From: a virus
Length of the DNA: 64,000 bases
Virus genome (UHGV): UHGV-1366603
Direction: 5' to 3' (one strand)
Position 1 is the first letter of the stretch; every line of letters begins with the position of its first letter. This document shows, piece after piece, positions 6,001 through 18,000 of the stretch. The position numbers were made by a program.

Positions 6001-9000
6001 AAAAACTACCGACTACGACATTAAGCGTGAGAACGGTGTTGAAACTGTAGAAGACTTTGTCTATACGGATACTGAACTGAACCCGGTACCGAAAGTGTTA
6101 CCGGACTACGATTACGACGATGACGGTACCGTTGCAATTCCTGACGGCCGTTATGTGGAATCAGGCGCAGACCTGGTTATTCCGTGGACGGACTTTGACG
6201 TTCAGGAGTACATGAACGTGACCAGCATTATGCGCGGTAGCCCTCGTAGTTCGATTATCTCTGAACTGGCACTGTGCTCTGGTTTAGACCAAGTAACGTC
6301 TGGTGACTCTGCCACAGGTTCGAAGTTCAGCTACACTGAAGCTATCGGTGTACAAGCCCTGTATTACATTTCGATGTTTACTAACCTGGCGCAGACGAAC
6401 GATAAACTGTCACTGACAATCCGTATCGGTCAACCTGCACCGTTCTTCTTAGGGACAGCGAATTAATGTTGATTCCTGAGCCGAGACTTCCCGATAAAAT
6501 GGTCAGGATCGCGGCGATAGACCCCGGTACGAGCCATCTCGGGATGGCGGTGCTGGATTGGGAATATGGCAGCGACCAAGCCGAAGTGGTGTGGGCTGAT
6601 ACCATGCACGTATTAGACCCAACACATCCAAGTGCGTTTGCAGAGTGTGTCGGTAAACGCGACGATCGCTTAGTAAAACTCGAAGCGTGCTACCGTGAGT
6701 TTCTTCGGATTGCGCGTCCGACGTTTGTTGCAACAGAAACGCCGTTTATGCGGCGGGCAAAACTCTCCGCGTATGAGTCTGGCGTAGAGTTACAGCTGAT
6801 GTTAAGACGGGCGTTATGGGACGTGTTTCCAGAGAAAGTCTTACACGGGTTCAATCCGATTATTGTAAAATCATTCGTTGGTGTGGAAGCGAAAGGAACG
6901 GACAAAACAGATATGTTTCGTGCCGTAACGAAGTTGTATCGCGACCACGCGTTGTTTGACATTACAACGTTGGATGAGCACAGTATCGATGCCGTGGCGG
7001 TGGGGAATATCTTTGTCAGGGTAAACCTGTTAAACTTGAATAGTCTCCTACCGCCAAAACAAAAGTCTGCTAAGACAGCAAAACGGCGGAGAAGACGTCG
7101 GAGGAAATAGCGATGTCGCAACCAACACAAGACGTGTCAGCCGCAATTCTTGACATTCTTATCCAAGCAGGAAACAGAAAGTTAAGTAAAGAGCAGTCCG
7201 AAGAACTGTCTAAGATTCTCAAAGACAACTTCGGTGACGACGTCTCTGTAGACGTAACGCGGTCGGGTACAAAGATTCTGTCGGAGCTACGCCCAACGCT
7301 TCTTGAGAACATTGGAAAGATGGCGGAAAACTTTCAGCAGCAAGCCACAAACGCTGTAGAGAGTTTAGGTGACGAAGTAAGCAAAGAAACGATGTTGACA
7401 CTGTGGCCAAAACTTGCCGGTGCACAGAAGTTCATTATTGTTCTGCTTGCACTCGCCACTGTGGTCGTGACAGGCTTCTTAGCGTACGACACGCATCAGA
7501 ACTTTCCAAAAGACAGTATGGAAGTGTTATTTGTATCCTTACTTCCGCTGTTCGGATTGGTAGTATTTGCAACGTGGCCAATTAAAACGTTGGCTTACAA
7601 GTCGTTGGAGATTGCTACCAAAGTTGTCGAGAAGAAACTTGAGAAATCAGGTCAGGTCGTCGCGAAGACGGAAACAAAGACAGCGAAATAAAACCAACCT
7701 CTACCTTCGGGTAGAGGTTTTCTTCTTTTTATTTTACAATTTTTGATCATACTGTGAGACTTGAACAAGGAGACTTATCATGGAACCACTACGTTTAATG
7801 ACCAGAACGCTACTGATTCCTATCTGGGAATTGAAGCTTGCCCCATTGCCTGCCTCTAATGGGGAGGTCATTGATTTTATTAAAGACGAAGAATTCGTGT
7901 TGACGGCTTTCCAGGAGACGCTGCATCGTTATTATAATGCAGTGCCTTTATCTGGCGGATTAGATTGCCCTGGTGTAGAAGGGAGTACGTCTGCGTTAAT
8001 TGCAGAGTATTTAGAACAGAAAGGAATCGGGGTTGGGAAAGGTCGGGTTTATGTGGACGTCGATAAACTGAAGAGTTATCAGATTGAGCTGACGTTTCAG
8101 ATAAGAAAATTACTTACTCGCTACGGTCTTTTCTCGATTAACTGTAAGGTTGATGACGTACGGATGTTAGACCACGGTTTTACCACCGCCCTCAAAACTT
8201 GTCGCGGTAAAAGATTCGTACAATTTGCGTGGTGGGTACCAGTATTGCGTGGTGAGAGAAAAACGGTGGAGGGGTTGTACGGCTGGGCGCTATGGAGCGA
8301 AGTTCCAGTAAATAAACTCGATGCGGTTATTCCAAAGCACCGAAACGTTCCGCTTAGCAGTTTATTTACTTCCGGCGAGAACACTACGTGGGCTGAATTC
8401 GTTAATAACGTTATGTCAATTGGGGAACAATGATGCAGCAATTAGATATTACTGAAGACAAAATCTCCGCTAAATTTCCACAATTACGCGAATACATTAA
8501 GGACTTAAACTCGATACGCGAAACACCTGTTCGTATTACGTTAGCGATAGAAGACGATATTACGCACGGTATTGCGATTTGGGAACCGGGCAATCTTATC
8601 TATCTGGTGGTAGCAGAAGGTTCTCGTCGTTTCGGCGTGGGTTCGTTCTTATTGCAGTACGTTCAGTTGAATTCCGATCGTCAAATGGTGACGTGTCGTG
8701 TCCACCCTTCGAACATTGACGGCCTGTGTTTCTTTTCGAAAAAAGGCTACCAGATTGACCGTTGGTATATCGCCAGCGACTCTCGTCGGTATTTTCGTAT
8801 GACGAACGGTAACGTTGTTTCGTCATACGCCCCGCCGGAAGAAGGATATTTGGTGGATTTTATCGAAAACACGCCCATCTTTCTCTCTGTTGCGGATAAA
8901 ATTTATTAACCGTTGAGAGTCTAAAATGATACGTGTCGAATATGAGACGCGGTGCTTAGAAGACAATCGAGCAAAAGCATTACGTTGTGTTGAAATCGTC

Positions 9001-15000: not shown

Positions 15001-18000
15001 TACGTGACCACTACCGCTTCGCCCACCACATTCTCACTGAAGGCGGTTGTCTACACCATTTATTACCCGTGAAGCAAGACGACGATTACCGGTTAAAAGC
15101 GGCTGAAATCGTTGCTTGTATTTTAGAGAATTAATCACATACCCCTACCTTCGGGTAGGGGGTTATTTAATTTTTTCTCAGATAGATATTACCTTAGTGA
15201 GATTACACAATAACCTCTTTACGACTTGTTCTACAGATTAGGATTAATTACCATGACTTATAATCACAACTCTATTGTTTTAGCAAAACGTAAATTCGGT
15301 CTTCATCTTTCTTACGTGATTCGTCATTTGACAGCGAAAGACATTACACAGCGTGAACTTGCCCAGCTTGCGAAAGTTTCACAATCGGTTATTTCATCTA
15401 TTAAGAACGATCGTAGCGAACGCCTGAGTCTACCGATAATGATGAAGGTTGCTGATGCAGTTCGTCTGAAATACCAGATTACGTTTAATTCCATTAAAGG
15501 GCGTTGCTCAGTAACGGTTCACGTAGAGTCTGCGTTGGACTACGTTGCAAATACGTCCCTTAAACGTACCGCGAAGAATATTCGTTTTGTTACTAACAGC
15601 GCAACACACTAACCAACCTAAAGGAGTAATATCATGGCACCGAGAACTAAGAAAACCGAAGTTAAAGAAACTGTAGAAAAGCCGACTGATAATAAGGAAG
15701 CGGAAGTTAAGCAGACTGGGCCTAACAAGAAACTTGTGCTTATGTCACCCGCCACAGAAATACACGGGGATAAAATCTTAAGTTACACTCCGCGCGCGAG
15801 TTTAACGATCGATATTTACCATTACCCGGTATTCGACCTGTACACGCTTGTCTGTCGACTCGACGATGAGATACTGGCAGTCGTTCCAGGTATCCACAAA
15901 GAAAAACTGCTTACGGGTTCAGTCATTAGCGAGATTTTCCTGCGCTTGATGTTTAAATCAGACGATAAGATGATCAGCCAGATTGCTAGTAAATTGACTG
16001 ACTTCTTTGTTGAGGCTTCAACGTGGTTAGGCTTTCACCCAACGGCTTATTTCGTTTTCGACACCAAAATGTTGTATGCTGAAATGGGCGATAGCGTTAA
16101 ATATCCTATCTTGCTTAATGAAGAAGTCGTTCCTTTTTCCCTTACCAGTCCTAACAAACATCTTCGCTTTCATCCGGCGTTAGAAAGCCTGATTGAATAC
16201 AATCGGTTGGAAAAATATTACGCTTATCATCGCATGTTCTTTGAACTTCTGCGTGATAAATTAAGAGGCAAAGTTCCAGATTCTAGTGCAGCATTCACTA
16301 GTTCTAAGCTTTGGTAGTTTGTAACAAACAGGGAGCTTCGGCTCCCTTTTTCTTTTTACAACTTTTTCTTTTGTTGTGAGGAAAGCCGATAAGGAGTATT
16401 AAAATGGTATATCGTAAAACGATAGAAAGAACCTCTTCTGATTTAACCGTAGGACGCTTAACCCGTAGAGATATTCGCAATCCTCAACTTCAGGCATGTT
16501 TAACGGGCCCTAACGGTGCGGTGATTCGTGAAGCACTGTGCAATACTGAGCTGAATACGTTCTCTTTACAAAAAGGAAAAACAATCCAAGGGTTTATCAT
16601 CACAAAACACATTTACGGTGATCCAACGTTACACTGCTTGTATATGCATGAAATTGTACCTGGGTGTTTGAACAAACTGAGCCTTCTATTGGTACTTGAC
16701 TATACTGGGTTTACGTACCTTAACCGAATTGCCAGGGGCGTGGAAGAAATCGCTGAGCTTAACGATTTAGGGTTTAGACATACCCACACAGCATATCGTT
16801 TAGGTACGCGTAAGCTACTGGATGTCACTTTACCGACGAACGTGAAGAACGTCTCCGGCGACTTCTATAAAGACTTAACCAGAGCACAACGTGAACAGCT
16901 CATGACGTTGTTTGGCACTAGCGTCGTTGAAAACATCAATGCTGACCCTGTAACGCGTTCTCGACAAATAATGCCGCAAGTTGAAACATTGGTGGAATTA
17001 GCGCGGCACGTCAATCACTACACTTACGTTTGGATGGACGGTAATGACGTTGTGGGTGTGGTGCAAGTTAAATCACGCAATCTTAGCGAGTGCGAACTAA
17101 AAGCCATTGCGGTAAGTGAATCACACCGGGGCCGTGGGATTGGGCGTGCGTTGTTGTACCGTGCTTTACAGATTGCTTCGACAACAGCAGCACCGTTAGA
17201 AATAGGCTGTTACAATAACAACCCAGCATTTAGACACCTGGCTGTAGATTTGTTTAAATTCCGTCCCTACGAGTACGAATTTGTTTTAGTGCGCGACGAC
17301 GATGTCGTCAGTTGGGAGCGTCGGAAAAACCGCGTCGAGTTAGTGTTAGGCGACGAAATGTCATCGTTACAAGGCGGAATTAATGCATAAACCAATTATA
17401 AAGTGGATGGGTGGTAAATCACGGATTATCGACACCTTACTACAAGTCTTACCTGAACGTACAACATTCGTTGAACCGTTTGTTGGTGCAGGGTCGGTGT
17501 TTTTGAACACACGTTATAAACGTTACATTCTTGCTGACTCTAACCCCGATTTAATACAGTTGCTGAATGTGGCGAAAGACCAACCTGAAGAACTTATCTT
17601 AAAGTCGAAACCACTATTCGAAGACGGTAACGATTGTATTAAGTATATGGAACGCCGTGAGTTGTTTAATCGCGAAACGGATATGGCTCCGTTAGACCGG
17701 GCAGCAATGTTTCTGTACTTAATGCGTCACGGTTTTAACGGGATGTGTCGTTACAACGGCAGCGGGGGTTTTAACGTTCCGTTTGGTCGCTATCCTAACG
17801 GTGTGTATTACCCGTTAGACGAGATTCGTGGTTGGGCTAAACGTTGTCAAGAACCGGAATACTTAGAAATTGTTTGTGAAGATTTCCGAACAGTTTTAGA
17901 GCGTACACCGGAAGAGAGTGTGATTTACGCAGACCCGCCTTATATACCGCTCTCAGAGACCGCTAAACACGCCCAATACCATCGGAAGGAGTTTTCCCAG

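Follow-up and report, generated by a model that had tools for sequence, protein, structure and literature searches.

Three genes within a 64,000-nucleotide (nt) stretch of the virus genome UHGV-1366603 (the whole of which is called the window here), all read from the plus strand, encode members of the GNAT superfamily. The first, G1 (8430–8909; 159 amino acids, aa), encodes a divergent, single-domain GNAT acetyltransferase orthologous to SPN3US_0088, the protein of PDB entry 7DQG; the second, G2 (12374–12841; 155 aa), encodes a canonical single-domain GNAT from an Erwinia and Salmonella jumbo-phage family that has been assayed for spermidine N-acetyltransferase activity; and the third, G3 (16404–17390; 328 aa), encodes a tandem-GNAT protein orthologous to SPN3US_0104. 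The account that we favor, and regard as probable, is that these are three anciently diverged genes for GNAT-fold acyl-coenzyme A (acyl-CoA) N-acyltransferases, vertically inherited at fixed places in a conserved block of genes and each playing the role that is proposed for it below.

The initial annotation had noted a GNAT motif-A-like loop in each of these open reading frames (ORFs). All three ORFs lie precisely where it placed them, and one Q/RxxGxG/A acetyl-CoA loop is present per ORF: RRFGVG, a pyrophosphate-binding loop, in G1 (aa 66–71; 8625–8642), RSQGVG in G2 (aa 100–105; 12671–12688) and RGRGIG in G3 (aa 242–247; 17127–17144). Of the 78 non-overlapping ORFs in the window, however, 12 contain the same pattern, and it arises in 9–28% of composition-preserving shuffles of the three proteins. 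As sole evidence for a GNAT it was rejected as non-specific, and the loop motif alone was a weak ground for the original call. The assignment is carried instead by fold and by profile searches. In the predicted structures, all three loops are placed at the beta4-alpha3 junction, and the mixed sheet follows the GNAT order beta1-alpha1-alpha2-beta2-beta3-beta4-alpha3-beta5-alpha4-beta6. The hidden Markov model (HMM) searches suggested as a check were run: G2 (E = 8.8e-19, 68.3 bits) and G3 (E = 5e-12, 46.6 bits, over aa 198–279 only) exceed the PF00583 cutoff of 20.7 bits, and G1, which lies below the Pfam threshold, is backed by other profiles. It matches phrog_7861 ‘acetyltransferase’ at E = 5e-69; the profile built from 13 sequences of its family matches only GNAT acetyltransferases in the PDB; hhalign aligns the G1 and G2 families with 90% probability (E = 1.4e-6, 20% identity over 88 columns); and several G1 orthologues carry precomputed PF00583/PF13508 matches. 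Its 58% identity to the crystallized protein of 7DQG points the same way. Pfam searches of the other ORFs of the window at E ≤ 1e-3 recovered no further GNAT, and the three family HMMs found no fourth one in the window.

Searched by megablast, 50,697 phage records contained no near-identical match to the region, and relatives were recoverable solely by distant blastn and by tblastn. Lower-stringency blastn showed about 66–70% nt identity to SPN3US, phiEaH2, Asesino, Stratton and others, the figure for SPN3US being about 66% overall. SPN3US is a Salmonella jumbo phage (Seoulvirus), and phiEaH2, Asesino and Stratton are Erwinia phages; Parshik and Kwan, to which we also refer, are a Machinavirus and a Wellingtonvirus. 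Because of this level of identity to the SPN3US group, and because the exact G3 protein is also encoded on a human gut metagenome contig of 223,427 bp, the window can be assigned to an uncultured jumbo phage from the human gut that belongs to the SPN3US/phiKZ-like group and is a distant relative of SPN3US.

The window matches SPN3US gene for gene in order, such that G1, G2 and G3 correspond by position to SPN3US_0088 (‘putative acetyltransferase’; 58% identity), SPN3US_0095 (‘putative GNAT family acetyltransferase’; 47%) and SPN3US_0104 (‘putative GCN5-related N-acetyltransferase’; 29%). The whole trio occupies corresponding places in Parshik, pEa_SNUABM_29, STsAS and Kwan, and phiEaH2 has G1 and G2 and has lost G3; each gene is kept separately at its own place across Seoulvirus, Machinavirus, Wellingtonvirus and Erskinevirus phages. 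By tblastn against the same phage records, G1 is detected in 62, full-length G2 in 58 and G3 in 47, with all full-length matches confined to the SPN3US-like clade. The initial annotation had read three such genes in 9 kb as a sign of something more than housekeeping. Because their mutual similarity is very distant (E-values among the three families are at least 1e-3 in cross-family HMM comparisons) and each is separately conserved in place, the genes are best read as three old, independently conserved lineages, with no recent duplication or local expansion behind their proximity. They are new orthologues of genes that have been annotated since the SPN3US genome record, with a crystal structure already available for the G1 family and published enzymology for the G2 family, and to that extent the finding is largely an ordinary one.

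A specific activity can be proposed for G2. Phage spermidine N-acetyltransferase candidates were expressed in E. coli BL21 ΔspeG by Li et al. (PNAS 2023; PMC9992855), who detected N-acetylspermidine for YP_007237670 of phiEaH2 and YP_009292176 of Caitlin, and spermidine N-acetylation, which was absent from the functions suggested in the initial annotation, is the sole function with experimental backing. To the phiEaH2 protein G2 is 49% identical, and to the 155-aa Caitlin gp103, which sits at the G2 slot and by its size and phage is presumably YP_009292176, 44.5%. The third assayed orthologue, YP_009153389 of SPN3US (47%), is likewise annotated at the G2 slot, as is YP_007237670, and the orthology of G2 to the assayed proteins is evident from both sequence and conserved position. 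The best PDB match of the G2 family profile is human diamine acetyltransferase 2 (1.6e-12), and its matches also include the SSAT1, thialysine, DpA-polyamine and ornithine N-acetyltransferases; downstream of the loop, motif B reads NNxxAIxxYExxGF, with an invariant Tyr139. Polyamine N-acetylation is the most likely activity of G2, to which we would give an even chance, and the enzyme itself would share the published spermidine-acetylating activity by virtue of its assayed orthologues. It would most likely transfer the acetyl group of acetyl-CoA to a primary amine of spermidine or of a similar polyamine or diamine, a reaction that would take away one positive charge and leave the infected cell with less free polyamine.

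G2 is translationally coupled to the gene for a phiKZ-like internal head protein (PF12699; 11241–12374, plus strand), the orthologue of SPN3US_0094: the two genes have no space between them, the last base of the head-protein stop codon being also the first of the G2 ATG (TAATG), and the junction is tight (−29 to +12 nt) in seven of seven relatives examined. G2 would then be translated together with the internal head protein. SPN3US gp94, the counterpart of this head protein, has been detected in virions; the main texts of the SPN3US virion literature searched do not mention gp88, gp95 or gp104.

Of the three genes, G1 shows the highest conservation, with 42–67% identity across the SPN3US-like clade, to which its family is restricted. 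Its closest structural reference is the chain of 7DQG (58% identical), entitled ‘Crystal structure of Salmonella phage acetyltransferase’; no published account of 7DQG, its function or the SPN3US GNATs was found in the literature searched. Among the 13 family sequences, the SRRxGVG/A loop is nearly invariant, with R66 and G69 invariant throughout, and two clade-specific motifs, RYFRMTN and PIFLS, mark the C-terminus. G1 may be pictured as a compact, clade-specific GNAT with an intact acetyl-CoA loop and a crystallized SPN3US orthologue. The second ATG (8433) is the probable start codon, in line with the orthologues. The first gene of the G1 operon, an unknown gene of phrog_8034 (7780–8433, plus strand; 217 aa), ends in a stop codon overlapping the G1 start (ATGA), and this pairing is kept in SPN3US, Parshik and Kwan. 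The phiEaH2 orthologue of G1 (gp012) is annotated in RefSeq as 122 aa and looks N-terminally truncated; in tblastn against the genome record (12443–12919), the alignment extends over all 158 residues, with 66.7% identity.

The AlphaFold2 model of G3 contains the GNAT strand and helix order twice, at aa 14–133 (16443–16802), where there is no Q/RxxGxG/A loop, and at aa 193–295 (16980–17288), which carries the loop RGRGIG and is the sole part of the protein to match Pfam GNAT models. On this model, G3 is predicted to hold two GNAT-fold domains in one polypeptide, one of them degenerate. When the model was compared with BFVD, the matches included N-myristoyltransferases and FemAB, which are themselves two-GNAT-domain folds. 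When 1.84 billion representatives were scanned exhaustively with HMMER, only seven full-length relatives of G3 emerged at E ≤ 1e-30; below these, matches to the profile covered only positions ~190–300, and among these representatives the N-terminal domain had relatives by sequence in the phage clade only. The degenerate N-terminal domain would probably be a scaffold or an acceptor-binding module, leaving the chemistry, as in MshD, probably to the C-terminal domain with its intact loop.

The start of the next gene, encoding a D12-class Dam DNA adenine methyltransferase (17383–18198, plus strand), overlaps the G3 stop by 8 nt, and an unknown gene of phrog_9941 (18198–18971, plus strand; 257 aa) begins on the Dam stop codon, so that G3 would be expressed from one operon with the methylase; among relatives, the spacing between G3 and Dam ranges from −8 to +79 nt. 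Within the trio, only G3 and its operon are truly uncharacterized. The 257-aa ORF is homologous to Kwan gp133 (7e-8) and phiEaH2 gp029 (2e-15), and its family retains a YxxxGF-like motif and has no acetyl-CoA loop. A 276-aa Kwan protein (the length of gp133) and other clade proteins of 256–278 aa match the G3 model in BFVD (E of 1e-5 to 1e-11), and hhalign gives the 257-aa family a 3.8% probability against G3. By such fold comparisons, this ORF may be a fourth, degenerate G3-like GNAT-fold gene. A different ORF of the window (15634–16317), tried as a relative of a 215-aa Kwan protein with a weak G3-fold match, proved to be unrelated.

The region had been described as early-type, a label that we find unsupported: The GNAT block is interleaved with virion genes, and neither the G1 and G3 operons nor G2 has an early-like AT-rich motif. 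The ORFs at 2856–6466 sit where the genes for SPN3US virion structural proteins map in synteny, and G2, with its ATG overlapping the head-protein stop, has no promoter of its own. Early promoters of jumbo phages are highly conserved AT-rich elements of about 10 nt (PMC7598289), and an element of this kind (AGATATATATTAC) occurs in the window at 15187, 36316 and 40371, none of these three copies being in front of a GNAT operon. Each lies in one of three near-identical copies (15180–15205, 36309–36335 and 40364–40390) of TCAGATA(T/G)ATATTACCT(A/T)G.GAGA, located upstream of three genes, at 15226 (a helix-turn-helix regulator), 36379 and 40381. The AT-rich motif also lies upstream of gp101 and gp99 of SPN3US and gp115 of Parshik, and is a candidate early promoter for the virion RNA polymerase.

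A different arrangement stands in front of the G1 and G3 operons. Upstream of each, on the plus strand, a GC-rich hairpin and then a T-run are followed by TTACAA-N13-TGTGA, forming terminator-like and promoter-like stretches at 7696–7757 (element at 7734–7757) and 16331–16379 (element at 16356–16379), and the same succession, with identical spacing, precedes the thymidylate kinase gene (element at 14427–14450). The pattern has four matches against 0.73 expected, three of the four being these intergenic sites. A looser version (T-run, TTAC, ~15 nt, TGTGA) is present at the homologous sites of SPN3US, Parshik and phiEaH2; in phiEaH2 it lies upstream of Dam, where G3 was lost. The TTAC/TGTGA-type element is kept at equivalent intergenic sites across four genera. 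In phiKZ, middle and late promoters are AT-rich around −24 and have TATG at the start site (PMC7598289). By analogy with these, the TTACAA-N13-TGTGA element looks like a promoter of a non-early class, and the timing of GNAT expression that we suggest follows from this reading of the elements and from the operon anatomy, which is itself shown here, as are fold family, orthology and synteny.

Several observations weigh against the roles assigned to the three proteins. For G3, the AlphaFold2 model has a predicted local distance difference test score (pLDDT) of 66.5 and was built from five sequences only, because the word-indexed protein search gave few relatives even with a seven-sequence profile; moreover, the motif-B tyrosine of the SPN3US orthologue is an alanine in the window protein, and the orthologue in Parshik has a deviating acetyl-CoA loop. 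For G1, the match to PF13508 (E = 9.6e-4, 19.9 bits) is under the gathering cutoff of 27 bits, and the model is mediocre (pLDDT of 67.6), with a TM-score of 0.57 to 7DQG, its own crystallized orthologue. Because the usual motif-B tyrosine is replaced by a family-invariant Phe-Phe, G1 may rely on a different proton donor or have no catalytic activity.

For G2, the SPN3US protein YP_009153389, of its orthologues the closest in host range, produced no N-acetylspermidine in the same assay, and the positive assays were made in vivo, where native and side activities are not separable (PMC9992855). Nor does G2 reach any NCBIfam equivalog for SpeG, PaiA or another enzyme: It scores 25.4 bits against a cutoff of 250 for PaiA, no SpeG model is among its 25 best NCBIfam matches, and it is not placed with the bacterial SpeG, PaiA or BltD spermidine acetyltransferases. 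The negative result for SPN3US may have a sequence counterpart. At 12 alignment columns, the phiEaH2 and Caitlin enzymes agree and SPN3US differs, and only one of these columns fully splits the family, with Asp130 in all non-Seoulvirus sequences and Gly in SPN3US and pEa_SNUABM_29. The window protein has the aspartate (12761–12763), in the context VLDNN, as do phiEaH2, Caitlin, Parshik and Kwan, whereas SPN3US and pEa_SNUABM_29 read VLGNN. Given its position on strand beta5, just ahead of motif B, Asp130 is plausibly a catalytic or amine-binding carboxylate, and its replacement is a candidate explanation for the inactive SPN3US protein.

A possible alternative is a part in host takeover: One or more of the three proteins, with G1 and G3 as the likeliest candidates, would acetylate proteins of the host, for instance subunits of its RNA polymerase or its ribosomal proteins. 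This is the function that reviews predict for jumbo-phage GNATs, and we regard it as unlikely here, though deserving of serious weight: The similarity to RimI-type enzymes is that of a generic GNAT core (16–49 bits, against a rimI cutoff of 86.4), and these jumbo phages bring their own RNA polymerases, which makes a need to modify that of the host doubtful.

The substituted tyrosine in G1 and the missing loop in the N-terminal half of G3 raise the prospect that these parts are non-catalytic, GNAT-fold binding or structural modules, in the manner of chimallin, the nuclear-shell protein whose C-terminal domain has a GNAT fold without active-site residues. We find this improbable: A near-invariant SRRxGVG/A loop in 13 diverged G1 sequences is hard to explain without CoA binding, and many active GNATs have no such tyrosine. 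Equally improbable, in our estimation, is a more ambitious reading, under which G3, Dam and the 257-aa protein would form one tandem-GNAT-like module, limited to SPN3US-like jumbo phages and performing an undescribed macromolecule acylation, and the coupling of G2 to the head gene would time polyamine acetylation to DNA packaging. Were the module real, its acylated target might be, for example, phage DNA, a nucleotide precursor, or a virion or host protein; and G2 would serve to tune counter-ions in a very large capsid rather than to take an early anti-defense step.

Such a step is the substance of another alternative, in which a GNAT acetylates a host immunity protein, or in which G2 depletes spermidine early and so impairs CRISPR adaptation or restriction fidelity. 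AcrVA5 is an acetylating inactivator of Cas12a, and it appears among the weak structural matches of the G1 model, at a non-significant E of 1.5. Spermidine depletion has been proposed by Li et al. for the very family to which G2 belongs (PMC9992855), but the coupling of G2 to a virion head-protein gene and the lack of an early-like AT-rich motif argue against very early expression, and we hold an anti-defense role to be quite improbable.

It is also conceivable that G3, Dam and the 257-aa ORF constitute a nucleic-acid or nucleotide modification module, with Mom-like acylation of a base or a nucleotide-linked amine. The 8-nt overlap of G3 with Dam and the conserved adjacency of the two genes would suit this idea, as would the Mom-type GNATs known from the literature on jumbo phages and the resemblance, in BFVD, of the downstream ORF family to the G3 fold. 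At E ≤ 1, however, Pfam assigns G3 to ordinary GNAT families only, with one non-significant starch-binding match and no Mom-family model; the spacing between G3 and Dam varies, as given above; and phiEaH2, which has no G3, still has Dam together with the promoter motif and the genes downstream. Because phiEaH2 retains Dam after the loss of G3, Dam does not depend on G3, and a modification module of this type seems very improbable.

Least credible of all are the readings as toxin-like tRNA acetyltransferases (TacT, AtaT or ItaT, acting on aminoacyl-tRNA) or as resistance enzymes (AAC(6′) or streptothricin acetyltransferase), of which the initial annotation had named the toxin-like and aminoglycoside versions. 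G2 has a PDB match to nourseothricin acetyltransferase, and its similarity to the NCBIfam models AAC_6p_group_E (E = 3e-10) and STAT (1.2e-9) is generic and sub-threshold (40.1 bits against 140 and 38 against 420, respectively), with no obvious gain from resistance for a strictly lytic jumbo phage; and none of the three genes adjoins a DUF1778 or ribbon-helix-helix antitoxin gene of the kind found in TacAT, AtaRT or ItaRT, PADLOC returned no hits in the window, and no AtaT or TacT chain is among the matches listed, by sequence or fold.

The reading that we prefer, of three old acyltransferase lineages held in place, has consequences that are modest in practical terms and do not challenge current understanding. 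That a human-gut relative of SPN3US retains the whole acetyltransferase trio argues for a separate, selected role for each enzyme in this clade. G2 is linked by it to published polyamine biochemistry, with the Asp130/Gly difference as a possible reason for the inactive SPN3US enzyme, and G3, as a narrowly distributed tandem GNAT, is the sole part of the finding from which novelty could emerge.

Elsewhere in the window, three other sets of genes deserve mention. Two adjacent radical SAM genes on the minus strand (49772–51094 and 51078–52001; PF04055, 3e-15 and 6e-14) have upstream of them, on the same strand, a pair of paralogous ORFs of 132 aa (53388–53786 and 53797–54195), whose C-terminal halves are near-pure Cys/Ser/Gly/Thr repeats (GGSCSWTCSSCSGGC...); a 299-aa unknown gene lies between the two pairs, and a coiled-coil, fiber-like gene (54260–55465) adjoins. 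The region 49772–54195 looks like a set of maturases and Cys-rich peptides, resembling those for ribosomally synthesized and post-translationally modified peptides, in a jumbo phage. At 29120–34954, tail-fiber parts of T-even type occur in this phiKZ/SPN3US-like phage: a 1507-aa protein with Gp34 trimerization, Phage_fiber_2 and S74 chaperone domains, then a full-length Gp38 adhesin (33643–34425; PF05268, 7e-68) and a further ORF with the Gp38 N-terminal domain (34442–34954). Finally, DUF7941 paralogues are scattered at 5032–5586, 25103–25666, 35117–35629, 43345–44193 and 47337–47909, and probably at 44207–44704 and 47980–48510, one full-length copy scoring 5.9e-79.

Among known systems, the closest to G1 is SPN3US gp88 (SPN3US_0088; YP_009153382; PDB 7DQG), whose 160 aa align with the 159 of G1 over their full length, which lies after the gp87 homologue with the same overlap of stop and start, and which has in common with G1 the SRRxGVG loop and the C-terminal RYFRMTN...PIFLS; the difference lies in the source, the window phage being uncultured and distinct from SPN3US. 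The phiEaH2 and Caitlin enzymes share with G2 a length of 154–155 aa, motifs A and B, the residue Asp130 and a location immediately behind the gene for the internal head protein; they have been assayed positive, whereas G2 is known here from its sequence, and the equally related SPN3US orthologue was negative. More distantly, the human SSAT2/thialysine N-acetyltransferase (PDB 2BEI) is the best solved-structure match of G2 itself (5.4e-10) as well as of its family profile, and, like SSAT1 and DpA (8A9O), is a single-domain GNAT for small basic amines, but the similarity of G2 to these polyamine enzymes is limited to about 70 core residues. G3 is predicted to resemble MshD (1OZP), MAB_4324 (7Q3A) and VipF (6WQB) in having two GNAT domains in tandem; its identity to these is only 11–13%, its score against the MshD equivalog TIGR03448 is 22.9 bits (cutoff, 163.1), and its N-terminal domain is confined to the phage clade. 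Rac, which in phiKMV-like and LUZ24 phages acetylates the alpha subunit of the host RNA polymerase (PMC7552054), is likewise a phage-encoded GNAT and provides the usual model of takeover; it differs in that the jumbo phages of this group encode RNA polymerases of their own and that nothing ties G1, G2 or G3 to RNA polymerase.

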